Shown here piece by piece: positions 1 through 20,000 of a stretch of DNA of 20,000 bases. The position numbers were made by a program, and so were the translations under genes. Source of the stretch: Raillietiella orientalis (Eukaryota); assembly GCA_036172245.1 (NCBI GenBank), contig JAYWIR010000144.1, positions 45,852-65,851 on the forward strand, given 5' to 3'. The notes under the pieces are model-generated. The model saw only the letters and a list, made by a program, of their open reading frames with translations. It was not told the origin of the DNA and searched no databases. Numbering within the stretch: position 1 is the first letter of the stretch; every line of letters starts with the position of its first letter.

Positions 1-13
1 GGATCTTTCGGAA

Positions 14-3000
14 ATGGTCAGCAGCATCGACCACGTCTTCCTGGATGTCGACCTGTGTTCACGGGTAGGCAAACGGGGGAAAGTTGCGTCGGAGCTGTCT
101 GACCATTTCCGGTTGATATTCGAGGTGTGCCCGCGCGACAAGGGCCCCCCATCCAGGGCGTGGCGTCTGCCTGGGGAATGGACGCGACTCTTAGGTGCGA
201 AGGAACACCTTCGGGAATTCCTGAGAGGCGTCACCATCCGCAATCTCAATGATTGGGACCTTTTTAAGGCCTCGGTCCGCGAGTTTTGCGAGGAGTTCCC
301 CTTGCACCTCCTGCCCCAGGGATTTGGTAAGGGCATCCGTAACGAACGAGCGTACTTGTATGCCCGTCGTTACTCGAGGACCCCCAATGTCCGTCGCCTG
401 GCAGAGTACCGAGCCGGGGCCGAACGTCAAGCCTGGCAATCCGGATCGGCCAGCTTGCTGGACGACCAGGGCCGTAAGCACTCGGCTCCGGCTAGAATAC
501 GGCACCTCGTGCGGCGTTTATATTCCTCCCTTCACGCCAGGGCGCCCCCGGACCAAGATGCCTCTTGGCGCTTGCTTCCGAACGGTGCCCCGGCAATAGG
601 GGAGGAGGAGAAGGAAAGCCTCGACGAGCCTTTTACCACCGGCGAAATTCTCGCCGGTATCAAAAGGCTCAAGAGGCGGAAAGCGCCAGGGGAGTACGGC
701 CTGCCTGCGGAGTTATTTTAATGCTTCGCGGCAGAGTTGGCACCCCTGGTGCTTGAGTTGACAAGGCTGATCCGAGATGAAGGCGATGTACCCGCCTCGT
801 TTCGGTCAGCCAGAGTGAGGCTCCTTCCGAAAGGAGGAGACCTCAGGAAACTCAGCAGCTGGCGTCCGATCACAATTGTGAACACGTACGCCAAGCTGAT
901 CGCCGGACTGTGGGCTTCGCGTCTGGGTCAGGTGGCCAATTCCATAATTAGCCCGGAGCAGAATTACGCTGTTCCCGGGCAAAGTATGGAGGCCAGCCTC
1001 TTGTTCGCGAGCACATGGTTTCATGTGCAGAGTAGTAAAGAAAAGGAAGAGAGAAGGATTGGCAGCCCCGCTTTGGGGGCGTCAGCCGGGCAGGGACAGG
1101 ACTCCCAGGTGGGGAAGGGAGCCCTAGCGATCGCAGCCGATCTGCATAAAGCGTTTGACTGCGTGGACAAGGATCTCCTGCTGGAGCTCCTGGGACGCAT
1201 GGGCTTCCCTCCCTCCCTACTGACCCAGCTGCGCTCTTGCTGGCGCAGCGCGCTGATTAATATCTCTTTCAGAGGTCAAATGGCGTACGGCGTGCCGGTA
1301 CGGCGGAACATACGGCAGGGCGACAGCCTCAGTCCCCTGCTCTTTAGCACCTACTTTGAGTTGGTGCTGAGAGCGTACAGGGTGACTTTGGCCCCCTTGC
1401 CGAGCTCGTGTCCCGGCACGCCCGCCGTTGCAGCGCACGCCGACGATCTTTTGCTTCTGTTGCCGATGTCCACCCCGGCGAAGGCGGTCGGGGATTTCTT
1501 CGATCTGCTTAGCCGCGGGACCGGACTGCAGGTCAACAGGGCGAAGTCGACGGTGGTTCCAGTCGGTGCGGCGTGGGCTGGGCAGATGGACTAAGTCCGC
1601 TTGGAGATCCCCACGGCGAGGTGCTGGAAGTACCTTGGTGTGCCGTTGAAGGACTACCCTCCTGCGGAAGCGTGGTCCGGCTGCCTCCAAAAAGTGGAAA
1701 CGGCGATCGGCCCGTTCCTGGAAGACAAGTTTCTCCTTCCGGAACGGGCCTAGATATGGAACGCGTTCGCGGCTCCTATCCCCTGCCCCCTGCTTTTTGT
1801 TTGCCCCGTCCCCAGAGTGTTGAAAATACGGACGAAGGACCACCTGAGAATTGCTCTTTGGGGAAGAGGGAGGCCCCGAGTCCCGTTGAAGGACTTGTGT
1901 GCTCCACGTCGGGATGGCGGTCTGGGCCTCTTGACGATGGAGCGTTTAGAGATTCAGCTGCGGTGGCGAACCTTCGCCATCGCAGCGAAGTTATGGAGCA
2001 CTTCTTGGTGCGTTCCAGCCCGACTCCTTGCCAGCCGTGTATCCTGGACGGAGGGTCTCGCGTCCTATCTTCTCTGCCGTGGCAAGAAGATCAAGAGATG
2101 CGGACTTCTCCTGGGACGCATGGCAACTCTGGCTAAGGAAAACGGCTGGATAGTATGAAGCCCCGCCAACTCCTCCGCATGTCTGGAGGAGACAGCTGGC
2201 ACGTGGGCGAAGATAAAGCAGCAGAACGGAGAGATGTGGAACTGCGTGCGACGCGGCGCCTATTCCCTCTGCACTCTGCGGAAGATACTCCAGTGTCCCG
2301 CGAGAAGCACGTGGGCAGAGACAACCCCCCTAGCTACGGCAATGCCCTTCCTGAGGAGGGCGCTCTCGAGTAGCCGCAAGCCTAGGTGGCAAGTCTCCTG
2401 TCGCATCGCAGGCTAGGAGAAGTTGATCAGCGGCTGGTCCACGGGTAAACTGGCGGACGCCAGTACCCCTAGTGTCCAGCCGAGAGGACTGCAGAGATGG
2501 GGCGAGCTACTCGGCATCCAGCCGGATGACCTGAAGTGGCCCTCGGTATTAATTGGATCTAGGATCCTCCCCCTGAAGTGGCAGGAGTCGGCGCTTCTGT
2601 TGTTGCATTGGGGTCTACCCTGCAACGCACGCCGTTACCACTGGACCAGGGATCGAGTAGATCCTACCTGCATCAGGTGTGGGGAACGGGAAACTCTCCC
2701 CCACCTCCTTGTTGATTGTGCTGCACTCCGACCCCTGTGGGAACGTCTTCGTGCCTCCCTACGGATCCAGGAGGGCAGCCAGCCCAGAGACGTTTTTCGG
2801 TTTCTGTTCCTGCATGATGCATTGCGTCCAGGCGCTTTTCTGGCTGCACTTTGCTGCGTACGCGGGATTGTGACGTGCTGGAGCAACGTCGGAAGACCGA
2901 GTCACGACAGGGATGCCGTCGTACTTGCAGTCTGCTACCTGCGGTTGGTGACCAGATGGCCCCACGTGGGAATTATACGGACGGACCTCGAGGGCATCCT

Positions 3001-3034
3001 GCGAAGGATGGACCCTTTTCCCAGTGGTCAGTGA
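14..3034 (+). pseudogene. ORF2 (APE endonuclease-reverse transcriptase), single frame with five premature stops
   Basis: Track ORFs 14-721, 737-1594, 1817-2158, 2234-2416 and 2423-3034 share one frame. Stops end at 721, 1594, 1753, 2158 and 2416. YADD reads HADD here. Confidence 0.93.
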
Positions 3035-3243
3035 TCCTTCCCCAACCCTCCCAAATCTTTTTGTTTTTATGTTTTATTTTTCTTTTTGTTTTTCCCCCCA
3101 CCCCTTTCCGCTGCCGAGGAGAGTCGCGCCGGTCTGCGTACCGGCGACCCGGCAGGTCCAGTTGAGTTGGCCGTAGTGGGGCCTCGTACCACGAATCAAA
3201 GAGAATTTTTAATAAACGCCCCGGCGTGACCGGGTGGCAACAA
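3035..3243 (+). promoter_or_regulatory. 3' UTR of copy 1: C/T-rich tract, nested stem-loop, AATAAA, terminal hairpin
   Basis: CTGCCG(3111)/CGGCAG(3150) encloses CGCCGGT-ctgcgt-ACCGGCG. AATAAA is at 3211-3216 and a CCGG-cgtga-CCGG hairpin at ~3218-3238. Homologous to four other UTRs in the window. Confidence 0.8.
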
Positions 3244-4702
3244 TCAACTTGGCATCCGCATTCACTATTGTGATGGGACGCCAGTTGTTCATGCTCCTCA
3301 GATCTCCTCCCTTAGGGAGAAGCTGCACCTTTGCCGAACGAAACGAGGCGGGAACGTCACCTGTCTCGCGTATCAGCAAGGTGAGTTGATGTACCAGGGG
3401 GGTTAGCTCAGCCGCGAAAGTTTGATAAAACTCCGCGGACAGGCCGTCCTCCCCTGTAGCCTTTCGCCTCTTGAGCTTTCCGATGGCCGAGATGATCTCG
3501 CCCATCGTGAAGGACTCGTCGAGGGACTTTTTCTCTTCTTCCCCGATCGCAAGAGCGCCTTCCGGAAGCAGGATCCGTGAGAAATCCCGCTCGGGAGGCG
3601 TTCTTGCGTACAGGGAGGAGTAAAAACGCCGCAGCAGACCGCGGATCTGAGCGGTTGCCGAATGCTCCTGGCCCTGATCTTCCAGCAAGCTGGCCGATCC
3701 TGACTGCCAGGCTTGCCTCTCGGCTCCCGCTTTGTAATCCGTTATCCTGCGGATGTCGGGGGTCCTGGCGGAACGGCGAGCCTGCAGATAGGCTCGTTCG
3801 TTACGTACCCCGTTTCGAAATCCCGCAGGTAGTCGGTGCAGAGGGAACTGGTCGCAGAACTCCTGGACCGAACGTTTACAGCGGTCTCAATCCTGAAGTG
3901 TCTGCATCCTAAAGCTCCGTATAAACGTGCGGAGATGTTCCGTCGCGTCCGGGAGCTTCTTTCAGTCCCTTGGCAAAGGCCACGCTGACGAGGGGGGGCC
4001 CCTCTCGCGCGGATGGATTTCAAACACGATTGGTCGATGGTCGGACAACTCGCACGGCAACTTGCAGCGCCTGCCCACACGAGTGCACAGGTGTTCGTCA
4101 AGGAACACGTGATCGATGTTGTCCTCCATCCCTGGTACACTGGCCAACAAATTACAAGTGTGCACCGCCGCGCACACCTCGTTGACCAGGTCACGCTCGT
4201 GATTCGTCCCATGCGGTTTCAGACGAACGTTAAAATCGACTGCCACCAGATGGGCATTCCGCACGCCTGCCTCGGTCAACCAGTCGCGATGGAGGGCAAG
4301 GAAAAATTCTTTCGTGGCCCTCCTGTTCGTCAGGTCCGCTCCGCTCGGGGCGTAAACGTTCGTAACGATCAGGTCGATGGAGACGGACCAGCTGAGAGTC
4401 AGCTAGCCGACACGACCGTGATCGTCGAATCGAACTCCACGGGCGGCGGCCTTGATGGCGGGCCGAAGCAGGTAGGAGACACCACAACTTCTCGATGTTC
4501 CACACCGATACCACAGCCGCCCTCCGTAGATGCGTTCGATCGACTGCGCTTGTTCTGCAGAGATCACATGGATCTCCTGCAGCAGCACAAGGTCGAACGA
4601 TCCTAGAATGGCGGCCATGTCTCGTCTCCTGCCGGCGTCTGTCATGCCGTTCACGTTACAAACGGCGATGCGCAGACGACAGCGGGAGGAGATTCCCGGC
4701 AT
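3241..4702 (-). pseudogene. ORF2 N-terminal part (APE endonuclease, linker, first RT motifs), disrupted
   Basis: Track ORFs 4403-4702, 3962-4279 and 3209-3688 are successive pieces separated by stops and frameshifts. Confidence 0.9.
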
Positions 4703-6420
4703 TACTGCCGGGAAGATGACGGTGAGAGGGAACCCGCCTCTTCCGACGCGGGTGAGATGACCATTAAGGTTTCAGCCTCCTCAGGCACCTTGGGTACCTT
4801 TCCTGCTTCAGGCCCCTCCATCTCCTCCGTGTCTGTGGGTGGTGGTCTCTTCGGTGACGATTCCCGGGATTCTCCCACGCTCATGGCATCCTCGCAGTCG
4901 GAAGTGATCTCCACGCCTTCGACCTGGAGAGGGACTTTCCGGGGTTTGCTGGACTTCCTTGCAGCCTTCCGGCGGGGTGCCGCGGAGATGGAAACTTGGT
5001 TTCCGGCCTGCGCTTCGGGGTCGGAAGTTACCGACTCCTCGGTGGAGGCCGGACGCCTCACTGCTTTTTTGCCAGCCTTGAAGGGTTCTGGCGGCAACGA
5101 TGCAGCCAGCTCCTCCGCCGCACGCTCGAAGGCGGCGTCATCGATCACGATCACGATGACGGACGCTTCCGCCGGTTCGTTCCCCACGCTGTTTACATTT
5201 TCAACAGTGGGTTGCTCGTCGGTAGCAGCGATTTCTACCTTGCGGCGTTCGGCGGGGACGCGTTCCACGACGATGCTGCATTCTTTTAAATTCTCGCTAA
5301 CCTGCTGTTTTTTATTTTTGTAGGCGAGCTTTTTTTCAATTCGTCGTTCTTTCTTCGACTTTTTTTTCTTTTTCGCTGTGACTTCTTGCCATTCCCACAC
5401 CTGATCGCTTTTGTCGATCTTTTCGGCATTGGTTGCCGGGGTGTCGGCTGAGGCCTGGACCACGGGAGTGGGTGGCACAGCTTGAGCGGCAGCCTTTGCC
5501 GCCAGTTTTTTCTGTAACAGCCGCGCGCGTTTTTTTAGGTTCCTCGCGGAAACCACGCGCACAGCGGATTGTGGACACACTTCCTTCGTGTGGCCCATTC
5601 TCACGCATACCAGGCACTGTACGTTGGGGCACCTCCTTTTGAGGTGTACCGACGTGTTACAGAAGCCACAGTATTTTGGCTTCCTTACGTACCAGAGGTC
5701 GACGCTTTCTCCGCCGACCACCAGTTTGTGGGGAAGGGTAGAGCCCTCGCGAACAATTACACAAGCAGCCGTGAGGCCGCACTCAACTGTGGTATAGTCC
5801 TCGAAAGGACGAGGCTTGGTCCATACTGCATGGACCGTGCCTTCTTTGCCCAACGCGGCGCGTAACTGTTTATTCCGCATCCGCGCGGTAACTCTTAAAA
5901 GGTGGACCACCATAATGTGGTCCGCCGTAACGGGAAGGAGCCTGCGTGTCTCCATTACCACGGGGGTTTTATGCAGACGTTGGGCCAGATCTGCATGTTG
6001 GCAGATCACCTCTACGTACTGCCCCCCGCTACGAATGGTCATAGCGCAGAGCTCCTTCTCTTTAACATCGAAAGCGCGCATCCCCTTCGAAGAGGCGCGC
6101 GCACTCTCAGAAGAATACAAATTTCCTACCTTGTAGAATAGTGATGGGTGATACCCCTCTTCCACATTGGAAGATTATTCCGCCGCGGCTGCAGGCGATG
6201 GCGCCGACACGACGGCGCTATACGCCCGCGCTGCAGCAAGGACCGGTTTTGTGGGGGCGAACGCCCCCACCTATTTCGCCTCTGAAGGCGACGTTGCCGC
6301 CGCCTCCTGGCACTCCACCTTCTCTACAGGCTACGTTGCCGCCGCCACCTGGCACTCCATTTCTTCAGGAGGCGACGTTGCCACCGCCTCCTGACACGCA
6401 CTGGTGGTCGTGTCAGGCAT
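4702..6420 (-). pseudogene. ORF1 (gag-like nucleic-acid-binding protein, two CX2CX4HX4C knuckles, Lys-rich/low-complexity C-terminus)
   Basis: Knuckles read CGFCNTSVHLKRRC-PNVQ-CLVCVRMGHTKEVC. The frame of track ORF 4702-6165 extends to an in-frame ATG at 6418-6420 (MPDTTTS...) through three stops (6331-6333, 6271-6273, 6175-6177) and aligns with the copy 4 ORF1 N-terminus. Confidence 0.88.
6287..6397. repeat. 42-bp imperfect tandem repeat (~2.6 units) in the ORF1 N-terminus
   Basis: ACGTTGCC recurs at 6291, 6333 and 6375. The minus strand encodes a 14-aa unit resembling CQEAAATSPxExxE. Confidence 0.9.
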
Positions 6421-6504
6421 TGCTGCCTGATCGACCACCATCACACACGAAGCCTACACCTAGGGACGGTTCCCGGCACGAGGAGCACCGAGGAAACACG
6501 TCCG

Positions 6505-8670
6505 CTCTAGCCGACGTAAAGCTTTCGACTGCGTCGACCAGGAGCTACTTCTGGAGCTACTGGAACGCTTGGGATTTCCGGCCGTCTTCCTGGCCTACCT
6601 GCGCTCCTGCTTGCGCTTCGCGCTTATCAATATGAATTTCAGCGGCCGGCACGTGTTCGGCGTGCCGGTTCGTCGTGGCATCCAGTAGGGTGACAGCCTA
6701 AGCCCCCTGCTCTTCAGCATTTACTTTGAGTTGGTGCTGAGAGCATACGGGGAGACTTTGGCAACCCTGCCTAGCTCGTGCCCCGGCACGCCTGCCGTGT
6801 CGGCCTATGCCGACGATCTTCTGCTCCTGCTTTCCGGGTCCACCCCGGCATCCGCGTTCTAGGATTTCTTTGACGTGCTATACCGTGGGACAGGTTTCCA
6901 GCTAAACAGGTCGAAGTCGTCGTTGCTTCTCACCGACTCTACGAGGGCCGGACGGTCGGACTGGATCCGCTTGGGGATCCCCACGGGCAGGTACATCAAG
7001 TACCTTGGCGTTTTGTTGAGGGACTTCTGCTCTGCAGAAGCCTGGTCCGACCGTCTACAAAAAGTGGAGCTGGCAATCGGCCCGTACCGGGACGGCAAGT
7101 TTCACTTGAAGGAACGGGCCACGGTATGGAACGCTTTCGCGGCCCCCCTCCTTCTCCCCCTACTTTTTGTGTGTCCTATCCCGTACCAAATCAGGACACG
7201 GACTAGGGGCCTTATACGGAAAGCCCTCTGGTGCAACCGGAAGCCCCGCGTCCGGCTCAAAGACTTGTGCGCTCCAGGCAGCGACGGTGGACTTGGTCTC
7301 CTGACGTTGGAGCGCATGGAGCGACAGCTCCAATTCAGAAAACTTGCCCTTGTGGCAAAGTTTTGGACAGCACCCTGGTGTGCAACGGCAAGACTCCTTG
7401 CTCACAGGGCAACCGGCGGCTTTGGATTGACTTCAATCCTGGTAGCCAACGAACGCAGCCTGAACCATTGTGGTTATCAGCTGCGGGATTTGGTTGCCCT
7501 TCTGAGAGACAACTCTTGGATCTCCTGCATCCCAGCAGACTGGACTACCTGGATTCAGGACTCCGTTTCCGCATGGGCGAAGATCAATGGCACCAGCCAT
7601 GAGGACCTCTCCTGTCTCCGCAGAGGGAGGCACGCTGGTCAACCACTGCAGGAGATCGCCCGCAGCCCACGGAAGCTTCTGTGGGCCTCCTTCTCCCCTC
7701 TTGCCCCGGTGCTGCCCTCCATCAGGGAAGTTCGGGACAGCCAGCAGGAGGCATCGTGGGGAGTGTACTGCCTCATCGGAGGCAGGAAGAAATCACTGAA
7801 GGCGTGGACGCCGAGGGAACTAGCGGACGCTAGTACCCCGAGTGTCCCGCCGAACGGACTTTTAGGCTGAGGCGCGCTGCTCGAACTATCTCCAGAGGAG
7901 GTAAAGTGGCCCCCAGCGTCATGGGACAACGGCACCCTTCCTCTGCAGTGGCAGGAGACGGGGTTGCTTCTGCTCCACTGGGCACTTTTAAGCAGAGCAC
8001 GCCTGTCTCGCTGGACAACAAGAAATGTGGATGCTAGTTGTGCACAGTGCGGGGAAAGGGAGACCTTCCCTCACTTGATTCTGGAGTGTGTTGCCCTCCG
8101 CGAAATGTGGGAAAGACTCTCGTCGATCCTCAACATTTCGGAGGGTGACCCAAAAATTTTATTCAGACGCATTCTGACGCGAGAGGGCTTGTCAGCCTCC
8201 GGGAGCGTAGCAGTACTCTGCTGCATACGCGGTATCCTGGAGAAGTGCACCGCGTCTAGGAGAGGAAGGACCAGCCGGAATGCCATCCACTGGGCAGCGA
8301 TCTCCTTGGAGAAAGCGTGCCGTTGGCGCCGACTTCAAAAACATTTGCCAGCACTTGTTCGCATCCGAAACCGGATGCTAAGGCCTGCTCACGGCGCACC
8401 GTGATCTACTCCCTCCCTTCCCCTCCCCAAAAAAACATTGCCCTCCAGGCGTTTTTCTTTTTTTTGTTTTTGTTTCCTTTCATTTTTCCCTTCCCGGTGC
8501 CAGTGAAGGAACTTATCGGCCTCCGAGTCGATAGGGACAAGTGCTACTGAACTTCTGAACTGAACGTCTGACGTCGTAAAAAGGAAAATTTTAACAACAT
8601 AAACTTTATTACAAAATTTTGTAATGTTAAAATTTTAGTATTTAAAGCCCCGGCTTACCCGGATGAAAAA
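6505..8670 (+). mobile_element. Copy 3: 5'-truncated LINE (RT from KAFD onward, C-terminal zinc finger, 3' UTR)
   Basis: KAFDCVDQELLLELL at ~6519, GDSLSPLLF, intact YADDL (~6806), KYLGV, CAQCGERETFPHLILEC and a stop at 8404. The UTR ends in a CCGG-cttac-CCGG hairpin plus A5. Confidence 0.93.
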
Positions 8671-11160
8671 CCTGCGACAGGAGACGTGAGGCCCACGTCT
8701 CCCCAACCTATGGAGGTGGGGTCATGCCCCACCAGAAAATCAGCCCCCGCCACCCCGGCGAGGGCGTGAAACAAGGTGGCAGCGGCGGCTCCGCCGGACG
8801 TGGCCGCCGAAGTACAGGCATACATAAAGGAAAGCTACAACCCTGCCCTCCTTTACAAGGTAGGAAATCTTTATTCTCCGCTTACCACGCGGAAATTTGG
8901 AAACGCCATCCGTGGGATAGGAATCTCTGACGAGGAGATAATTTGCTTCTCGATTCGGAGCGGCAAGCAGTTCGCGGAGCTGATCTGCAAAGATGCAGCG
9001 CTCACACACAAACTGCTCTGAACGCCCGTTCCGTTCGAAGGGCGGAATCTCCTCCCACACACGGTGGATCACTCTTTGGTGATCCACCTCACTGGAACAA
9101 CGGTGCGGATGACCGAGGAAGCCATAGGCACTGAAATCAACAAGTTCGCGGAGATCTACGCGATGTGGTCGAAGCCCAACGCCTTTACTTATCGAGGCGC
9201 ATTCAGTGGGCGAGTAGCCGCACGCGTAACTCTCCGCGAAAACAAAGAACTTCCCCACAAGCTGGAGGTCAACGACGAGCTCGTCGACCTCTGGTACGTG
9301 GGGAAGGAAAAATACTGTGGGCTGTGCAACACATTCGGGCATCTTAAAAAGAGATGCCCGGATGCCACATGCCCAACCTGCGGCGCGAAGGGCCACACTA
9401 GTGCTGTGTGCCCGAAAAATACCGCGACAACGGCTTCAGCCCCTTTAACAAATGGGGGGAAGAGGGCAGAAAACAAAAAAACGAGCGACCAGCAGCTGAC
9501 CTCAGAAGAAGTCGTGCAGAAGGAGCAGGAGCCTCAAGAGAAGACTTCTGAGCCAACTGCCGACGAGGAAAACTGGAAAGTCGTTTCAAACAAAAAAGGA
9601 AAAGAAACACACAAAAAAACAAAAACTCCAAGAAAAAATCATAATAATACAAATCAGAACGCGAGGGTTCCCAAAAAACCCGCGGTCGGCAAACCAAAAA
9701 TTTTGCCGCGCGAGTCCATAAAGGAATGCCGCGTTACAAGCGAGCGCGTTCCGTCGATCGAGCGTCGATCGGCGAACGCGACTACCGCAACCGTCGCGAA
9801 CGCCGCGGAACCGCCGTAGGAATCCTGCGACAAACACGCGAGCAGCAGCGACGAGAAAAACTTCGCGAAGGCGGCAGAGGAACTAGCGGCCACCTTAATG
9901 CAGCCGCCTAAGCCTGCAAAGAAGGCCGTCAGACGTCCGGCGGAAGTTAAGGGCCCGGAAACTTCCGGGTCCGAGGCGGAATTCGGAAACCCTCCCACCG
10001 TCGCCCTTCCGAAGAGTAATGCGGGCCGGAAGTCGCGCAACCCTATGCGCGTCTCTCCCCCTCAGGCTGAGGAGGAGGAGATGCGCTCGGATAGCGAGGA
10101 GGCGATGTACACGAGGTCGCGGGATCCGTCTATCGACAGCATCCCGTCGGTCCTTCCTATCGACCTCATTCCGGATGCAGACGTTCCGGTCGTTGCCGAA
10201 ACGCCACCACCGCAGATGGACAACGATCATCCGCTTCCCGAACAGGAGGCGGCAATACGCACGCCACCACCATCATTAGTATGATGCGTGGAATCGCCTC
10301 TTGCCGGCAGCTGCGTAAAGTCTGTTGGAATGTCAACGGGCTGCGTAGCGAAAGCAAGAGGCGTAGCGTGGCCGACACCCTGCGACCTTTCGACCTGGCA
10401 CTTCTCCAAGAGGTGCATGCCCTCAGAGCAGAGGACGTCCAGGAAATCGAGAGGCTCACAGGGAGGAGGCTACTTTGGCGTGGTGGAGGAGACCACTCCC
10501 GTGGAGTGGCCTTCCTGCTGAAGCCGGCCGTCGCCAATGCGGTGCGCAGAGCACAGTTCGACGAGGAAGGTCGAGTAGGACAACTTGTACTCAAGTGGTC
10601 CGAATCGATCGACCTCGTAGTTACGAACGTGTACGCGCCCTGCACCACCCACAGGCGCGCAGAAGGCACTGCGTTCTTGGAAGCCCTGCGGCGAGACTGG
10701 CTGGCCGAAGCAGGCGTGCGGCGAGCGCATCTGATAGCGGGAGACTTCAAAGTCCGCCTGCTGTCGGAAGCACCCGACATAAGAGCACAATTGGTCAACC
10801 AGTTGTGTACGGCTATGCACACACGCAACTTGTTAATCGATGAAGCCGGGGTGAGAAGCAGAATCGACCACGTCTTCCTCGATAACCACTTGTGTACGCG
10901 GGTGGGGACTCGAGAAGCAATTGCGTCGAAGCTGTCCGATGACCCTCGGCTAGTAATCAACATCCATCCGCGCGACAGAGGTCCACCCTCCGAAGCGTGG
11001 CGCCTGTTCGGGGACTGGTTGCGACTCGCAGGAGCACGCGAACACCTGCGCGCATTCCTGAGTAGTTGTAAATTGCAGACTCTCGCTGACTGGGACAAAA
11101 TAAAACGCTCAGTCCGAGTGTTCTGTGACCAGTTTCCCCTCCATCAACTTCCTCCAGGAT
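8671..11160 (+). mobile_element. Copy 4: ORF1 + complete APE endonuclease, truncated just after EN
   Basis: ORF1 pieces 8776-9021, 9064-9819 and 9898-10284 share one frame and contain CGLCNTFGHLKKRC-PDAT-CPTCGAKGHTSAVC. ORF2 has WNVNGL, LQEVH, NVYAP, GDFK, RIDHVF and SDD. Confidence 0.93.
10284..11160 (+). pseudogene. ORF2 APE endonuclease domain, open frame but truncated (track ORF 10281-11189 reads into the next fragment)
   Basis: All canonical APE motifs occur in order, but the catalytic GDFN and SDH read GDFK and SDD. Confidence 0.88.
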
Positions 11161-12450
11161 CTCGCTGTGTCCTTGCAGCGTTCCCTTAAATCCGCGAAAA
11201 AGGCCTTAGAACGTCCGAAATCGATCAAGAAGTCGAAGATTCCGAACTCTGACGCAGAACCGGAAAACAGCCTGCGACATCGCGGCCTCTCGCTCGAAGG
11301 CCCTTCGCACGAAAAAGGATAACCCCAAAATTATCTCGTCCGCCAAAAAGGGAGAGATAATCGAGAGAAGCAAGCGTGCGAAGAAAGTGAAGAACTCAGG
11401 GGACTCTCCTAGAGAGGTAACCTCATGCTGCGACCCCGGAGGGAGGGAAAGGGTAGAGTCTGTGCCCCAGGTGCTTCAAGAGCTGGAGATAGCCGCGGTT
11501 TCCTTCCTCGTCCCTCCCACCTGTCCCTTGACAAGTGCTGCAACGACACGTTCCCAGCATTAATGCCGGGAATCGCCTCTTGCCGCCGTTTGCAAATTGC
11601 CTGTTGGAACGTCAGTGGGCTAAGCGACGACGGCAAGAGACGAGACGTGGCCTCCACCCTGGCATCGTTCGACCTGGTGCTGCTGCGAGAGATCCACCTG
11701 ATCTCCGCAGACCAAGCAGCGGGGATCGAGCGTATCTCGGGTGGACGGCAGCTGTGGCGTTGCAGCACCGTTAAATCTTGAGGTGTCGCGTTCCTGCTTC
11801 GTCCAGCTGTCGAGGCTGCGGCAAACGGCGTACGGTTCGATAGTGCCGGTCGCGTTGGGCATTTGACCATCAGGCTGTCCGACTCCATCGATCTGGTCAT
11901 TACGAACCTGTACGCACCAAGCGGTAGCGTCGCGCTAAGGACAAAGGCAAGGAAAGATTTTTTCTTTATTCTGAGACGCGAATATCTGGACAAAGCCGGA
12001 GGGCGCAAAGCGAACCAAATCGCAGGTGACTTTAAACTTCGCCTGCTGTCAGGTGCGTCCGACACACCTAGGGACCACGTGAACAAGCTGTGCGCAGAGA
12101 TGCACACGAGCAGCTTGTTCGCGGGAGATAGGGAAATGGCCGACAGCATAGATCACGTGTTTCTTGAACAGCACCTACGCTCACCCGTGGGGAGGCGCGG
12201 CAAGTTACCGTCGGAACTGTCGGACCATGACCGGATCGTACTCGAGGTGCGCCTACGCGATAGGGGTCATCCGTCATCTGCGTGGCGCTTACCGAAGGAC
12301 TGGATAAAACTCTTGAAAGCCGCGGAGCATCTTCGCCGATTCATACGAGGTTTCAGCTTGCAAATGCCTCAGGACTGGGACCGCTTCAAGCGCTGGGTCC
12401 GGTGGTTTTGCGACGAGTTTCCTATGAACCTTCTGTCTGCCTGGTTTAGT
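11155..12450 (+). mobile_element. Copy 5: ORF1 C-terminus + APE endonuclease, truncated at both ends
   Basis: QDLAVSLQRSLKSAKKALERP matches EELAATLMQPPKPAKKAVRRP of copy 4. TAATG lies at 11561, followed by WNVSGL, NLYAP, GDFK, SIDHVF, SDH and WFCDEFP. Confidence 0.9.
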
Positions 12451-14195
12451 GTTGCAAACTGTGTACGCTTGGGGCATTTATTCAGAAAAAACTCTCTATA
12501 ATTCGTAGTATAAGTCCCACTGTGTCCTTAGTCACGCGACCTGTCGGGACACCGGGAAGTATCCCGGCGTGGCACTCCTCGACAGCGGAAAAAGATGGAG
12601 AAAAAAACAAAAAGCAAAATTAAAGAGATAAATAAGCAAAAAAAAAAATTTGGAGGGCAGGAAGGTGATGATCGGACGCTGTAAGGAGGGCTCATCCGTC
12701 AAAGGGAGCCCTTGAGGTCTGTCCGCATACTTCTTAGATGGGGCCATCAAGCAGCTCTCCGCAAGAAGCGTACTGCGTGCTGGACGACTTCCCTCTGGTT
12801 CCAATCTACATCTTCGCTGCTGGCATCGCTCCAAGGCGCCACAATGCCTCGAACGCAGCACAGGACCGCGACGGCGGCTGCTGGCTGCAGGGCGTCCCGC
12901 ACGAAGAGCAGGCGGAAAACGTCTCTCGATGAACTGCCCGTAGGGTGCCCGAGGGTCGTCCTCAACCTTGCCCAGAGGGGTCGGAGGGCATGACAATCCA
13001 GTATAAGGTAGAAAAGCGACTCCCGCTTCCCGAACTTGGCACACTCAGGCCTTACACTTCCCCGCGTCCAGTGGAAGCGGTGCGCGTTGCAGGGTAGACC
13101 CCAGTGCAACAGCAGGAGCCCCGTCTCTTGCCACTTTAGAGGGAGAAGCCTGGATCCGATGAGTACTGAGCACGCGGGAGGGCTCTAGGGGTCGTGGCGT
13201 CTGCCAGTTCTCCCATGGTCCAACCGCTTATCCTTTTTTCCTTTCCTGCAATTCGGCAGGAGACATGCCACTTTGGCATCCAGGCTCTGGTTGAAGCCCT
13301 CCGTAGGAAGAGCAGCGTCAAAGCTCAAGGGATGGTCTCCGCTTACGTGCTTCTGCCGGGACACTCTAGGGTGCTCCGTAGGGTGCAGCCGGCGTTGGGG
13401 CCGAATCACAAGCGGTTCCAATTTTCGGTTCGTGGGTTGTTCAGCTTGGCCTATGTCGCAACGGATTCCTCCAGCTAAGCGTAGGAGTTGGCGTGGCTGC
13501 ATATCGTTTAGCCGTTTTCCCTCACCCGGTTTTGGATGCGTCCATGGAGAAGGCCGCATCTCCTGACTTTTCGGCCGAGATACAGAAGGAAAGACACGAG
13601 TCCATGCGTTCTGGATACACGGTTGTCGAGGATGCGGCCCGGAGCGCACCAGAGGGTGTTTCATGTCTTTGCTACGATAGCGAGGGTGCGCCATCGCAGC
13701 TGTATGTCCAGGCGCTCCAACGTCAGGGGGCCAAGATCTTCGTCACGACGCATAGTGCACATGTCCTTAACAAACTCACGAGGCCTCCCGCTGCCCCAGA
13801 TGGCGATGCGGAGAAGGCCTTTTGTCCTCTTCTCCAAGTCACGGGGGACAAGGCACACAAAGAGCAGGAAGCGAAGGAAGAAAGCAGCGAACCCGCTTCA
13901 CACGGCAGTCCGTTAAGGCAGAAGAAACTTGCCTTCCAGGAACGGGCCGATTGACAACTCTACCTTTTGGAGACGACCTGACCAGGATTCTGCGAGTCAA
14001 AAGTCCCCCAACGGGACACTCGGGTACTTCAGGTACTTGACCGTGGGGATTCCTAAGCGAATCCAGTTAGGCCGTCCAGCCCACGTCGCACCCACCGATA
14101 CCACCGACGACTTCGCCTTCTTTACCTGCAGTCCATTCTCACGGCTCAGCAGGTCAAAGAAATCCTCGACTGCGACTGCCGGGGCGGACATGAGC
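12449..14195 (-). mobile_element. Copy 6: 5'-truncated LINE (late RT/thumb, C-terminal domain, 3' UTR)
   Basis: DFFDLLSRENGLQV, WIRLGIPTVKYLKY, LGPLTLERLDIQLRW and HWGLPCNAHRFHW match copy 1. The minus-strand UTR has AATAAA at 12477-12482. Confidence 0.92.
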
Positions 14196-14204
14196 GGCCC
14201 GCTT

Positions 14205-14520
14205 TCTAAGGATGACGACGCGAAGGCCCCATCTGACATCCACCATACAGCAACAGCTTGCCGTCATACTCCACAGGATCACGGACAGTGATCCCAGCAG
14301 ACAGTGTTCCCTTCCCGTAACTTCCCCAGTTTTCTTTATTTCTTTGTTTACTTTTGTTTCGTTTCCCCTCCCCTCGGCTTCCGAGGTCGACCGTTCCGGT
14401 CTGCGCACTGGAAGCCTGGCAGGCTCAATGTTTCTAAGTCGTGGCTGCACTACTGATCCAGTCACAGGTTGTATGGGTTTATTTTAGAAAATCAACGTTT
14501 CGGCGAACCGGGTTTCAATT
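14205..14520 (+). mobile_element. Copy 7: ~315-bp 3'-end fragment (last ORF2 codons + 3' UTR)
   Basis: TTRRPHLTSTIQQQLAVILHRI resembles the copy 1 C-terminus VTRWPHVGIIRTDLEGILRRM. It is followed by a T-rich tract, a TTCCGGT-ctgcgc-ACTGGAA hairpin and the terminal TTCGG-cgaa-CCGGG. Confidence 0.8.
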
Positions 14521-15140
14521 CAATTTCTGGAGCGTGACGCCTCCCAGGAATTCGCGAAGGTGTTCCGTCGCACCTGAGAGTCGCTTCCAGTTACCCGGCA
14601 GACGCCATTCCCAGGATGGCGGTCCCTTGTCGCGAAGCCGCATCTCGAAATTCAACCGGGAATGGTCCAACAACGTTGACGCAACTTTCCCTTGTTTGCC
14701 GACCCGCAAACAAAGGTCTGTGTCGAGGAAGACGTGGTCGCTGCTGCGGACCATTCCCTTCTCACCCGCGAACAAGTTGCGCGCACGCATGGCGGCGCAC
14801 AACTCGTTCAACGCGTTCACTTGTGTTTCCGGCTCACCTGTTAGCAGGCGAAGATTGAAATCTCCCGCTATCAGGTGAGCCTTTCGCACGGTCCTTTCCG
14901 CCAGATAGTCGCGTTTCAGGGTTTGCAGCAACCTGTTTCCTCAGCTGTTGCCCTGCTTGCCGTTGGGGGCATACACGTTTGTGACGATCAGATCGATCGA
15001 GTCGTACCACCTGAGAATCGGCTGGTCGACTCGACCGTCGTCATCAAAGAGTACGCCCTTCACATCAGTGTCGATGGCTGGCTTGACGAAGAACGCGATC
15101 CCGCAGGTACTGCGGGCGCGGCATTGCCAGTGCAACCGAC
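14518..15140 (-). mobile_element. Copy 8: internal APE endonuclease fragment
   Basis: Contains CGIAFFVKP, NVYAPNG, GDFN, SDHVFLDTDLC and EHLREFL. Confidence 0.9.
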
Positions 15141-16290
15141 GATGGACTGCAGCGTTATGGTCCATGTCACTGGTATTATTAGCTTTATGACGCTGTCTGC
15201 GTTCAATGGCGAGCTAAAGAAATAAGATGTGCACGCGTTCTGGCCGAAACGCAGGATTTTCTATGGATATGACAGCCTATTTGGGGTACAGACAGCAGCG
15301 CGTGTTACAGTGCATGAGGGTGGTGCGCTGCTTCACAAACTCGAGGTCTGCTAAGAATCGGTAGGCCTCTAACACGTAAAGAAACCCCTTTTTTTTAACT
15401 CTTTCCATGCAATAGAGCACTTACGTAAAAGTTGCCCGCACATTGTGTGCCACTTAAGCGGAGAAAAGGGTCACATGCGCCGTGTGTGCCCTAAGCGCCC
15501 CACTCCAGTGCCGCCTGCTTCCTAAAAGACGCTGGCAACACGAGGAAAGTTGGTTTAAAGACCAAATACAGAATCTGGTCTACAGAAGCTGCAAGCCACC
15601 CTTCCTCCCACACAGGCGTCGGAAGAAAAAACTTCCGAAGACGCGATAGACGAGGTGGGTTGGCAGCTGGTTGACGCCAGAAAGGAAAAGCCTTAAAAAA
15701 AGGCATCAGTCGAAGAGGAAAAGGTCGCGACCGACGCGCGAAAAACGAAAAAGTCGCGTCCGAAAAAACTCTGTCAGTGCTCGGTTGCACTGGAGCGCGT
15801 AGACGTTCCGGTGGCACTGGAGCGCGTAGACGTTCCGGTGGCACTGGAGCGCGTAGACGTTCCGGTGGCAGCCACCCGGGACGACAAGCCTCTCCTCGCC
15901 GCTTCCGCTGTGCCGGAGATTTCGGACTGCGAATTCTCTGTTTACACAGAGAGTGAGACGCGCGACGCGCTTGCCGACGTTGAGGATGTGGACGCGTTCG
16001 CGAAGGCGGTGGAGGAGCTCGCGGCCACGCTGGCCGAGCGTGAGAATCCCTCGCGCAAGGCAGTGCGAAGGCTGGCTCCGCCCAAGAAGGCCCACGCAGG
16101 TGAGTTCGACCTGGGGTTCGGAAGCACATCTCCCTCGTTGGAAGCACCCCTCGGAATGCGGGACGTAAGTTCCAATAGCCGAAAAGGGGCCTCCCTCCAC
16201 CAGCGAGGAGGAGAAGCAGGAAGTAGACGGCAGCCTAAGAATCCTGGAGGGGGAACTCCCACACTCGAAAGTCGTCGAGCAGGCCACCCC
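15135..16290 (+). mobile_element. Copy 9: heavily decayed ORF1 fragment
   Basis: MDCSVMVHVTG resembles VDHSLVIHLTG. Degenerate knuckles read HLRKSCPHIVCHLSGEKGHMRRVCP (~15418-15493). AFAKAVEELAATL..KAVRR is also present. Confidence 0.85.
15787..15870 (+). repeat. Perfect 27-bp tandem repeat x3 (encodes ALERVDVPV)
   Basis: GCACTGGAGCGCGTAGACGTTCCGGTG occurs at 15787, 15814 and 15841. Confidence 0.97.
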
Positions 16291-16294
16291 ATGG

Positions 16295-16403
16295 ACGGTG
16301 TTCAGCAGGCGCTGAGCCAGGCGTGCATCTCTACATGCAAGCTCCATTCGCCAACCGCCACTTAGCACTGAAAGACCTTCGAGGTCTTCTTTTACGTTCA
16401 ACC
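16295..16403 (-). mobile_element. Fragment 10: ~110-bp ORF1 piece
   Basis: NVKEDLEGLSVLSGGWRMELACRDARLAQRLLNT aligns with copy 2 DVKEKELCAMTIRSGGQYVEVICQHADLAQRLHKT. Confidence 0.78.
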
Positions 16404-16582
16404 GCGTTGCAGGATAGACCTCTATTCAACAACCTCTATGCAACAGCGCTCTCTCTTGCCACTTTAGGGGAAGAATCCTGGATCATGTGAATACCGCGGA
16501 CCACTTCAGGTCATCCGTTCGGATACCGAGCAGTTCGCCCCATCTCTTTAGTTTTCTCGGCTGGACACACGGGGTCGTAGCG
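16404..16582 (-). mobile_element. Fragment 11: ORF2 C-terminal-domain piece, inverted relative to fragment 12
   Basis: ATTPCVQPRKLKRWGELLGIRTDDLKWSAV..SRILPLKWQE..CNA matches copy 1 at ~2458-2628. Confidence 0.9.
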
Positions 16583-16599
16583 TGGAAGTTTTTCGTCGA

Positions 16600-17086
16600 C
16601 TTCCCAGATTCGTTTTTCGGCTCCTCTTCCTACGGGACGCCCAGTAGCGAGCCGTATCTGTTGCAGCGTTTTCCTGTTTCCGCTGTATTTTTGCCGTCTG
16701 GAGATGATTTGACGAAGAAGGTGATGACTACGACAGGAAAGTGATTAAATATGCAGTTCGCTTCAAGTGGATGGCAACCCGACCGTTCAACTATAAACAA
16801 ATATGATGAAGGACCTCGACGACATCCTGCAGTAAATGCACCCTGCACCAACCAGGTAGAGATCTCTTGCCGATCCTCCAAGGATTTTTTTTTTTAATTT
16901 TATTTTTTTTACTTTATTTTTGTTTTTATTTTTTCCCCTATCCACGTTTGCTGCAGTGAAGAGTCAAGCCGTTCTGCCCGTCAACATCCCGCCCGGTTCG
17001 CTGTTGTGTTAGCCGTTGTGGGGCCCTTGTTCCGAATCGGTTGTTCTGTTTATAATAAATGCCCCTCCGTGACTGGGAGGCAACAT
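16600..17086 (+). mobile_element. Fragment 12: ORF2 extreme C-terminus + 3' UTR
   Basis: PRFVFRLLFLRDA..YDRKVIKYAVRF matches copy 1 from ~2783. It is followed by a T-rich tract, AATAAA at 17054-17059, a CCTCC-gtgactg-GGAGG hairpin and CAACAT. Confidence 0.85.
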
Positions 17087-18120
17087 GGAAACGGAAGTTC
17101 CGCACCTACCCTTTTACCCTGTTCCGGACAAGGAATAGCATTCTGCAGGCATTCTGTGAGCTTTGCCGTTAATTGTGTGTCCTACCTGAGAGATCGGCGG
17201 CTTGCTGTTCGGAGAAGGCGTGTATCTTCAGCTGCAGGACCAGATGGAACTTCACGCAGTACGTGAGTCAACAACCGCCTATTATCATCAACCTGCAACC
17301 CGTTGACGTTTCAGCAGATCATGAGGACGTGACGAAAGGATACGAGCTTACTTATTACTGCTGCGGAAATGGCGGCGCTTCCCCCGCCTCGTCCGGCGAG
17401 GCATCAGGCTGGAGCGCGTCGTGTTGGGGAGCGCAACCGCACTCGTTCTCCTGCACGCCGCGCGCGGCGCTCTCTTTGGAGTCAAAGAATACTGTCCTGG
17501 ACTTAGAGGATTATCGAAAACCGTTCGCGGCATCTGGCTTCCTCCTGGAAACTTTGGGTTTCCGCGCACTCCAAGGTTTCCAAAGGGCTTGGGGAACCTT
17601 TGTGCTGCCATCGGACTCCAACTCTGAGTCGAAATTTCGTGTGCACGATAAATGTTTTTTCTACCTGCTCTTTTGCTGGCATCTTGGACGTGCTCCAAAA
17701 TTCAGCGAGGGTGCCACCGTCGACGATCCCCCTCTTAAGGTCTCGGCGTTGTCAACTTCCCTTTCGGGGCAGGCGGCACCGACCGCGCACTCAACCGCAG
17801 CGGAAACTTTTTCCTGCGAATTCCTTGACGTACGGGGATGCCTCCTCACCCCTCCTACTTTTCGGATGGGTAAATGGGAAGGATCTTTTGTTTTTCTCTG
17901 TTTCTTCTCCGCTTCCCCCTACAAGAATCCAGACGGCTTCTTCGTCTTTCAGGTTGCCTCGGCTCGATACGAGGGCCTTTCGAATTATTCCCGTTGGGCT
18001 ATGAAAGCCAGTTGCTTTCTCGCTACCTTTGCCTTTTGCACGTTCTTATCGCAAGGTACGGACAAATTCGCAGGATTCTTGAGAGTCGAGCGAGGCTTAG
18101 GAGTCTTTCCCGACTAACGA
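17085..18120 (-). mobile_element. Copy 13: very decayed ORF1 C-terminus + EN N-terminus
   Basis: The minus strand reads IC*NVNGL, FHLVLQLKIHAFSEQQAADL and LFLVRNRVKG*VRNFRFH (EN). TAATA at 17353-17357 is in exact register with TAATG of copy 2. The upstream low-complexity frame is ORF1-like; the right boundary is set by the composition shift. Confidence 0.75.
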
Positions 18121-19034
18121 CTCGCTAAGGACGGACTGTCTTCACATTTTGCACTTAAAGGATGTTATATGTGAGGTAGGCAAAAGAAGGATATGTGTAA
18201 ATTGCGTATGTTAAGACTGGAAATGCAGAATTCTATGATAAAACTGTTGAATGTAAGGAATCGTTTGTGCACATAAGTTCATGCAAGCGGGATTCGGAAT
18301 TCATTTGAAGATTGAATGGGTGTATCTTTTAATATTGCTAATAAAGATGGTCTGAATATCAGTGCAGATTAAGTGCAGAAAAAAGAGTTGAAGGATCAAA
18401 TGCAAAGAAGCTTGAAATTATTATGATCATGTTAATTGTAAATAATCGGTGGTTGTGGTGGCGGATGATGATAATTAATGTCATAGTAAACAAAACCCTA
18501 TAAGAGAAATGGATAATGGCGATAGAATAATTGTTAGTAAACAGTTAGCTATTATGAAAATCAACGATCTAATTAATAATTTAAGTAGATCTTTAAATAG
18601 ATATTTTAATTTGAGTTTAAATGTTTGACATTATAATAACATCCTCAAACAAACCAGTCAACTATTTATCAAAAAATGCACACAACCAGTTGTTTCGATT
18701 ATAAAGGAATAATAAGAAAATATGACAACTGTAAGATAAAATTCGAAAACATAAAAAAATGAAACATGTTTTCAAATGCACAAAAGACAGAAAATGTAGC
18801 ATCGATATCTTTGGAAGATATCAGTTCTGTGCGGGATGCGGAATCGAGAACGTAAACGAGGATAGAAGAAGTCCATTTAATTCTGCTTTTATCGCTAGAT
18901 CGGCACATATGGACCTATAAAGAAAGGGTACCTGTGCAACAAGCTTCTTATTTAGAATAATTCAAAATTCCAAAAAAAATAAACAGCAAAATGCAAAGAC
19001 TTTATTCTACTCGAATTAAATAATAATAACACTT

Positions 19035-19914
19035 CTAGTCAGTTAAGCCCTTCAACTTTACAGTGAATGTCGTTCCAGCTGTCCATGTGCATATCAGTTT
19101 GCTAGGTACAGGCTTCACATTCCGGCCTCGACGGAGCCTAAAAAAATTCCCAGGCATTTGTTCGGAATCGAAAGTTATCCATTAAAATACGGGAAAGCAT
19201 TCATAGGATAGAAAACCTTGCTTCCGCAAATTACATTCCTGCCAGAGGATGTGAGAAAGAAGGAGCAAGGAGAAGTTTGAAATAAATAATTGCAAACTCA
19301 CTCTCTCCGAAAAATTTCTGAAACCTGTGCTAATTCACACAAAAATTTTACATAACAGAGATGCACACAAATCAAAGAGATATTCCCGTTAACGCATTTT
19401 GTATAAAGAACAGAAGAAAGTAGAAACGACTTCTAGACAATGCTTTCCAAGAAGCCATGCACAACAGTAGGGGTCTTAAGGATCTATGTATTCTATTGCA
19501 ATGAGGCCAGAAGCAAAAGCTACCAAACTGAAAAGAAGAATGCACAAAAATACATACGTTTCAACTCTCCCAGAAAAAGTTAAAGAACAAGAACGGTCTG
19601 GTCCCTCAAGGAAGAAATTAATCTGCTCAGAAGCACGAGGTCCCTGCACCTGAAATCAAAAAATATTTGCGGCTCTGATAAAATTTACTCACCTCAATGT
19701 CCAAACTGCAACGACTTCTTGGTGCAGGATGTTTACGATTACTCAGCCACACTTCACAATTAGTTCCAGTGTTGTCAAAATAAAGAAGGCACGGTCCTGT
19801 CTGACTTGTAAAATACAGCTGATCTTCTATAATCCTATCCTCATTTAAAGTGACGTTATTACACAGAGAGAGACATTGACTACCCCTACTACAGAAGAGA
19901 AGAACAATGGATAC
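19035..19914 (-). CDS. Probable spliced host gene (3' part), small Cys-rich, possibly secreted protein of unknown function
   Basis: Exon 19693-19914 is 74 codons without a stop after a TTTTTTGTAG acceptor. A 43-nt intron 19650-19692 reads GTGAGT..TTTCAG. Exon 19558-19649 is open only in the matching phase and ends at a GTATGT donor. A phase-compatible terminal exon 19035-19137 follows TTTTTTTAG, with AATAAA at 19001-19006. Splicing within 19138-19557 is unresolved. Confidence 0.6.
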
Positions 19915-20000
19915 CTACAAAAAACCAACTCTCAGTGAAATGGTAACAACCGGAAATAAAAACGAAAAGCAGATTGCGCAGAATTGAGCAAGCAGTTTGA

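Follow-up and report, generated by a model that had tools for sequence, protein, structure and literature searches.

Landing sites of sister LINE families within one another in a nested cluster of Raillietiella orientalis

Described systems of targeted LINEs and the present lineage

In Coccomyxa C-169, Zepp is described as one family that targets its own copies and forms tandem arrays, with strictly a single cluster on each chromosome (PMC3446292, PMC8226300). ZeppL of Chlamydomonas is, in the published account, absent outside the centromeres, at which the assembly breaks (PMC8226300). The present analysis concerns a lineage of long interspersed nuclear elements (LINEs) in Raillietiella orientalis (GenBank assembly GCA_036172245.1; 210.5 Mb in 491 contigs), studied from the final 20 kb of the 65,851-bp contig JAYWIR010000144.1 (C144, positions 45,852 to 65,851; this whole stretch is called the window and numbered from 1). 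In this lineage, at least 10 families are joined by their 3' ends to fixed, family-specific positions, most of them in the coding sequences of sister families. The likeness to Zepp and ZeppL is that of an L1-clade LINE forming nested clusters via insertion into existing copies, here at the level of the lineage. The differences are the number of families, the use of different sites in sister families (mostly in antisense) and the presence of several clusters per contig along with many dispersed copies; the systems are set apart here by their descriptions and not by sequence.

Targets reported for the Tx1 clade include DNA transposons, long terminal repeat (LTR) elements, RNA genes and microsatellites (PMC4494074). 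Tx1L, Tx1-Mar, Tx1-8_Crp, Tx1-4_AMi, Keno, Kibi and Koshi share with the lineage an apurinic/apyrimidinic endonuclease-like (APE) endonuclease and a family-specific preference, as defined by a criterion of more than 20% (PMC4494074). Targets inside other transposons and tandem copies around the duplication are further features in common with the accounts of this clade (PMC4494074, PMC4640811). In contrast to these accounts, the targets found here are coding sequences of sister LINEs, and the reverse transcriptase (RT) tree contains no supported join to fish LINE proteins. The latter also differ from the lineage in the hairpin region of the endonuclease (EN), which is shorter in the lineage.

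Arrays of non-LTR elements of 5-80 kb are known for Cnl1 of Cryptococcus (bioRxiv 2021.08.11.455996), and G2/Jockey-3 of Drosophila is enriched in a chromosomal domain via insertion bias (bioRxiv 2022.11.25.518008). Unlike the present lineage, both are presented there as single families at subtelomeres or centromeres, and those descriptions mention no fixed site in sister elements. Human L1 ORF2p, with its endonuclease L1-EN, is the best relative of solved structure and its catalytic residues are kept, whereas the lineage lacks poly(A) and has family-specific GC-containing nick sites instead of the T-tract/A junction. The nearest analogy for the partitioning of targets is given by R1-clade families, which occupy different sites in the ribosomal DNA. 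Listings from the open literature (subscription papers and Repbase reports being outside this scope) contained no report in which numerous sister LINE families insert at fixed positions within one another's open reading frames (ORFs). The lineage works like Zepp, in that nesting builds islands, and like Tx1-Mar and its relatives, in that APE elements target other transposons; it is a multi-family variant of such targeting.

Family-specific junctions and the layout of the window

The sample of 199 raw 3' ends was reduced to 168 non-redundant ones, with 119 in 15 groups by their 3' untranslated region (UTR) and 49 single; site tallies per group were counted by eye, and the sampled DNA includes regions chosen as clusters. 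In at least 10 families, the hairpin-bearing 3' end is joined to a family-specific site in ORF1 or ORF2 of the lineage, mostly in antisense. Group A has 14 of its 22 ends at ORF2 amino acid (aa) 478 antisense (one tandem) and 2 at aa 357. For group E, 21 of 28 ends are at aa 564 antisense, tandems included, and the other 7 are in non-lineage DNA. Four sites that match its subgroups account for 23 of the 31 ends of group B, namely aa 287 antisense (12 ends, 4 of them tandems), two separate sites in ORF1 (8 and 1) and aa 108 sense (2); family B1 is found at aa 287, as is family C, and B2 in ORF1. The smaller groups behave in the same way: 8 of 11 F ends are at aa 57, 4 of 4 D ends at aa 145 sense, 4 of 4 J ends at aa 48, and 4 H ends at aa 261. 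Two F-family insertions were also observed in the 3' UTR of family A, in antisense and at the same position, which is a second and non-coding site.

In the whole genome, the sequence coding for the RT residues KAFD directly follows 54 of 97 exact E ends, with 6 more KAFD-joined matches outside those 97, and the DAKL sequence directly follows 32 of 88 A-type ends. Both counts come from strict patterns and are lower bounds, and the 88 include a few of other families that share this end. By the criterion of target preference proposed for Tx1-clade elements, that is, more than 20% of flanks (PMC4494074), E and A both show such a preference. An RT tree of 36 copies groups those sharing a site with strong support (clades A, B1, B2, C, D, E, J and G), with one decayed B-type copy of the window and the A copy at aa 357 left unplaced. 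Lineage DNA comes next to 16 of 30 unselected ends on the 12.2-Mb contig C1 (the first 30), or to 11 of 25 when the cluster at the contig start is set aside, versus 14 of 200 background tiles; the tiles come from 20 stretches, one of which is itself a small cluster.

For 41 of the 119 grouped ends, the flank recurs upstream. In 36 of these cases the repeat was judged a target duplication (about 13-16 bp) and in 5 a homologous site belonging to another copy; many other ends have their 5' end beyond the 1.5 kb examined. Inserts at 15 E junctions have a median identity of 89%, compared with 62% for the host flanks, which form 9 groups. At 12 A junctions, the corresponding values are 94% and 87% (minimum 67%), with 3 host groups. 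The A inserts at one site are 585, 884, 4,396, 5,573, 5,896, 5,913 and 5,961 nt long. Since the hosts are far more divergent than the inserts and the 5' truncation varies among the latter, the junctions are real insertions and mostly independent events. In the public short-read run X1 (286 contigs, 154 of them at 90-95% likeness), a 3' end joined to the aa-48 site, i.e. a J-type joint, occurs in one contig of one study.

The first-pass annotation of the window had proposed a single LINE family inserting repeatedly into its own copies. Repeated, sequence-specific insertion into copies of the lineage is supported, and the hosts are mainly sister families: among 61 on-site junctions typed against labelled copies, 45 lie in another family, 1 in its own and 15 had no match at 85%. 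Same-family head-to-tail pairs do occur. The own sequences of F, J and D are visibly unlike the sites they use, and for E and D the own sequence differs from the used site by a synonymous Asp codon. The -1 base of E's own sequence was found at 10 of 49 E 5' junctions versus 43 of 100 intact sites among the matches listed (Fisher P 0.007). Among 98 E-type ends, 2 have a flank that matches E's own type exactly, and there are several similar untyped ones. Strict self-immunity was rejected, as E avoids its own -1 base only partly and B1 carries a site resembling its own target.

The claim that about 13 LINE fragments on both strands fill positions 1-18,120 was upheld by self-comparison, tblastn and junction mapping, and Pfam matches to RT, APE endonuclease, zf-RVT or zinc knuckle were obtained in 6 of 17 window ORFs scanned. 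The pieces are as follows.

1-3240, plus strand: family A copy with ORF2 (EN end, RT, C-terminal CCHC), T-rich 3' UTR, AATAAA and GC hairpin.
3241-6514, minus strand: 5' half of a family E copy with 5' end, ORF1 (gag-knuckle type) and ORF2 aa 1-477, interrupted by A.
6515-8670, plus strand: 3' half of a family G copy with ORF2 aa 560-1186, 3' UTR and hairpin; host of E.
8671-11165, plus strand: untyped family R36 with ORF1 and ORF2 aa 1-286, ending at the aa ~287 site of families B1 and C.
11166-12451, plus strand: untyped family R37, interrupted at the B site, with the end of its ORF1 region and ORF2 aa 1-285.
12452-14191, minus strand: decayed, 5'-truncated B-type copy with ORF2 aa 666-1185, 3' UTR and degenerate hairpin.
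14194-14518, plus strand: short 5'-truncated H-type copy with 3' UTR and hairpin, antisense at ORF2 aa ~261.
14519-15137, minus strand: B-like endonuclease fragment (ORF2 aa 54-260), host of H, with its other end at the aa ~57 site of family F.
15138-16300, plus strand: decayed ORF1 fragment, 55% to B-type ORF1.
16297-16608, minus strand: two small decayed pieces (ORF1 aa 95-127; ORF2 aa 987-1043).
16620-17083, plus strand: decayed A-like 3' tail with hairpin, joined to the F-type fragment below.
17084-18120, minus strand: decayed F-type fragment (ORF1 C-terminus and EN start), the right edge of the cluster.

The A copy ends in ...GGCAA without poly(A), and the full-length element starts 2.3 kb left of the window. 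It is an antisense insertion at the RT codons DAKL (ORF2 aa ~478) of the E copy, with an imperfect 15-bp target duplication at 3241-3255. The 5' end of E in turn adjoins the RT codons KAFD of the G copy, the 3' end of which is joined to the start of the next ORF1. The decayed B-type copy is an antisense insertion at aa ~287 of R37.

That lineage fragments make up 1-18,120, as had been supposed, is largely confirmed. The sole part unmatched in the other contigs examined, 11,162-11,517, has a 91% paralogue elsewhere within C144. The sharp right edge placed near 18,120 is also correct, because the piece at 17,116-18,098, which gave no tblastn match, is 68% identical to a lineage copy on C1 and is thus a decayed lineage piece; at this edge, the GC content falls from about 0.55 to 0.29-0.40. 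Beyond what the window showed, the cluster covers about 62 kb of the 65,851 bp of C144. The assignment to a single family did not survive. Among the 7 ORF2 pieces considered in the window, 13 pairs can be compared, and these have 40-66% protein identity, versus about 91-96% DNA identity between copies within families elsewhere, where ORFs often exceed 1,000 aa. The pieces are therefore coexisting families and not ages of one, and their spread of divergence, earlier taken for decay of copies over a long period, is that of coexisting young families.

Element structure, proposed mechanism and its rivals

The element is about 5.5-6 kb long and contains a gag-knuckle ORF1, an ORF2 of about 1,190 aa, a T-rich 3' UTR, AATAAA and a GC hairpin, with 2-5 A and no poly(A) at the 3' terminus. 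The hairpin has a folding energy of -8 to -12 kcal/mol in all 7 ends that were folded, and its pattern has 1,790 matches genome-wide (control pattern, 0). ORF2 has the order N-terminal APE endonuclease, RT, C-terminal CCHC, which are broad L1-clade features, and target-site duplications and 5' truncation are present as for L1-clade LINEs. The RT is nearer to L1 than to R2 (human L1 ORF2p, E = 5.5e-45; R2 proteins, E 2.5e-11 or weaker). Only two proteins (66% and 73%) exceed 35% identity among the best 150 matches from 1.84 billion representatives, and the best named matches are fish LINE proteins at about 30%. Comparison with the ESM Atlas returned generic RT/EN clusters only. A divergent family, 27% identical to family A in ORF2, was noticed within the same clusters (C144:32,400-36,700; start of C1), and the RT tree makes it sister to the lineage. 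In that tree of 57 rows, the two form one long-branch clade with no supported placement. As part of the explanation favoured below, the lineage is probably a genome-specific radiation of APE-type L1-clade LINEs with at least 10 families.

The catalytic N, E, Y, D-x-N, D and S-D-H are retained in the endonucleases of 15 copies, and EN domains are 45-100% identical to that of family A. All 15 copies lack 14-16 residues of L1-EN before the 'IDH' strand, and the shortfall is larger against fish-type proteins. The AlphaFold model of the domain shows a short loop at this point; it was made from 79 sequences with a predicted local distance difference test (pLDDT) score of 92, an earlier fold from 15 sequences having been poor (pLDDT 63). 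Over 209 residues, the model superposes on L1-EN with Z 26.1 and a root-mean-square deviation of 2.2 A. In L1-EN, the betaB6-betaB5 hairpin is reported to tune specificity, and its deletion to nearly abolish nicking (PMC1950540).

The whole explanation that we favour, and hold to be probable, is that sister families insert at their own fixed sites in each other and so build nested islands. The junction positions, the target duplications, the link between family and site and the enrichment are observed parts of it. Each family would transpose by target-primed reverse transcription from its 3' hairpin end, with the hairpin supposedly acting as the RT recognition signal. A separate nick preference of about 8-12 bp, presumably set by the endonuclease, would find its best match at one position in sister coding sequence, mostly antisense. 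With one best-match position in sister genes, new copies would split older ones at stereotyped points: A into E at DAKL, E into G, B, D or F at KAFD, B1 and C at aa 287, B2 in ORF1, and F, J, D and H at aa 57, 48, 145 and 261, respectively. Alternative landing at the regenerated site could give the head-to-tail pairs. Since each insertion adds targets for other families, lineage-only islands of 50-260 kb would grow by positive feedback, and local inverted duplication could enlarge them. Targeting would be leaky, with about half of the insertions at weaker matches elsewhere. The site preference may have been selected as a safe harbour.

A series of results weighs against this explanation. Non-lineage DNA follows 14 of the 30 unselected C1 ends, so targeting is leaky, and 45 of 83 C1 ends are isolated, any other end being more than 20 kb away, the lineage being both clustered and dispersed. 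Most junctions of D (4), J (4), H (4) and F (11) come from clusters selected as such. Target sites do not fall significantly at conserved codons (P 0.07; 0.12 within aa 1-600), 4 of 12 sites being above the 90th percentile. Any short motif is fairly likely to be matched by chance within a 5.5-kb element, so that selection for sister targets is no more than a possible reading. The endonuclease also lacks much of the loop that tunes specificity in L1-EN. Duplication also contributes, as seen from the inverted paralogous blocks at 80-91% and the 5.5-kb inverted ends of C144, from window positions 336-8679, which are 92% identical to a block on contig C6, and from the single sequence type present in about 26 (about half) of the 49 E 5' junctions. 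As a separate matter, mobile-intron-like placement at catalytic or conserved codons was rejected on the same P values of 0.07-0.12.

The strongest rival, which we nevertheless consider improbable, dispenses with evolved sister targeting. A short nick motif together with chromatin steering or survival in gene-poor islands would suffice, and the best chance match in a LINE would collect the insertions. The unremarkable codon positions agree with this, as does the behaviour of off-target E insertions: all 7 non-lineage flanks begin with TCG and have normal target duplications, and as core and duplications are kept there, the preference is graded. The frequency of the motif speaks both ways, since its tighter 8-bp version is found merely 1-2 times per ORF2, whereas a looser one is found 4-10 times per ORF2 and yet a single site is used. 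The KAFD site has 951 occurrences genome-wide, and short versions of the motif have an estimated 32,000-227,000 sites (from 100 kb of background). E uses KAFD in 56% of cases versus 0.4-3% expected, a roughly 20-130-fold enrichment, which implies a longer preference, regional bias, survival bias or a mix. Survival or chromatin alone would have to produce this enrichment, though isolated copies are common.

Far less probable is a Zepp-like state, with one self-targeting family that marks a centromere or a master small-RNA locus. Genomic distribution was assessed from genome-wide pattern lists and about 1 Mb of DNA. Large lineage-only islands do exist: one on C1, 72 kb long at 8.004-8.076 Mb, is bordered left and right by non-lineage DNA, and a second of at least 45 kb occupies the start of that contig. 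Many contigs begin or end in clusters, as do the breaks described at Chlamydomonas centromeres (PMC8226300). On C1, 34 of the 83 ends lie within 10 kb of another end, whereas 5,000 random draws gave a mean of 10.4 and at most 29. The number of families and the single own-family host among 61 typed junctions oppose such a state. So does the number of clusters, as C1 has two large ones, C5 two (at 2.34-2.60 Mb with 15 RT sites and at 3.51-3.61 Mb with 9) and C13 several; copies are also common outside clusters, unlike the pattern described for Zepp and ZeppL. Since single contigs hold several clusters, the one-per-chromosome pattern of Zepp is absent, which argues against a strict Zepp-type centromere. 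It had been stated that copies mostly dispersed singly would contradict the initial idea; this is partly the case, about half being single and the rest clustered. An association with telomeres was rejected; a TTAGG array, the arthropod telomere motif, stands at the end of C13, the sole case among the first 100 of 266 matches, and the largest cluster of C13 lies about 1.9 Mb from it. The motif suits an animal host, as do the best full-coverage matches of a CCT-gamma exon, which are in arthropods and vertebrates at 61-68%. The largest cluster of each chromosome may be centromeric, or the genome may be holocentric, and a small-RNA role for some clusters is likewise conceivable.

The idea that the mosaic is an assembly artefact or a segmental duplication of a few ancient nests draws on the small size, near-identical inverted ends and internal inverted paralogues of C144, on the redundancy of 31 of the 199 raw 3' ends (partly from overlapping loci) and on the common E 5' type, yet is hardly credible given that multi-megabase contigs contain the same architecture between stretches of non-lineage DNA, that hosts at one site are far more divergent than the inserts, which differ in 5' truncation, and that one joint type recurs in run X1.

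Insertion of sister families into each other thus remains the preferred explanation, and it can be extended, though only tentatively. The lineage could be a closed community of at least 10 families with private landing sites, in which the endonuclease has evolved to cut competitors where a family's own sequence partly escapes (in E and D through a synonymous codon change), with a determinant other than the largely lost hairpin loop. Such a predator-prey network might build self-expanding domains, perhaps of centromeric or silencing chromatin. The lineage provides a natural series of related endonucleases with at least 10 mapped nick sites, in which the way APE retrotransposons change specificity can be tested by domain swaps. 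It also suggests how, at the level of sequence, islands made of one retrotransposon lineage can arise with no cue from a centromere, and offers a case of transposon families inactivating one another.

Right flank and minor observations

Two features extend over the right end of the window.

18121-20000, no strand: low-GC multi-copy flank, the outer part of a palindrome-bearing module (contigs C108 and C105).
14526-19997, no strand: arm of a 5.5-kb inverted repeat at both ends of C144; the other arm is C144:1-5494, with 4 mismatches and 3 indels before position 5,495.

A probable host gene had been placed less than 1 kb from the cluster and was rejected, as the flank is multi-copy and palindromic, has no Pfam match in 18 ORFs and shows no codon periodicity between its C108 and C105 copies. 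The region 18,100-20,000 has 10 genomic matches at 75-100% identity. The palindrome arms of the module are 3.8-4.2 kb long and 97% identical in C108 and C105; in C108, it sits between LINE stretches. Its positions are about 153,900-163,800 in C108 and 79,000-87,300 in C105, and at least 10 copies, at 75-98% identity, lie beside or between the LINE clusters of several small contigs. Structured RNA was rejected, the single sub-threshold Rfam match in 40 kb being taken as chance. The terminal inverted repeat of C144 spans LINE fragments as well as the low-GC flank and could arise from a recent inverted duplication or an assembly fold-back. Across the genome, the background composition is unusually patchy, with kilobase tiles of 0.29 to 0.72 GC.

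The C6 block corresponds to the three-layer nest A-E-G, and its match stops exactly at the 3' end of G, which might reflect independent nesting or compound read-through retrotransposition; no 5' duplication of such a compound was found in the DNA examined. At 6501-6528 and in 49 genomic matches, the stretch that separates the target duplication from the E 5' end varies together with the type of that duplication. Full-length E copies often have mismatched duplications, and E RNAs may carry target-like 5' sequence. Short tandem repeats occur in ORF1 regions, with 42-bp units at 6286-6397 and 27-bp units at 15,782-15,870. Several continuous ORF2 copies are mosaics of two families (C144:4882-8257, a C1 cluster copy and a C13 copy), some switching near the A site (aa ~475), and nicking at target sites may promote such inter-family recombination.

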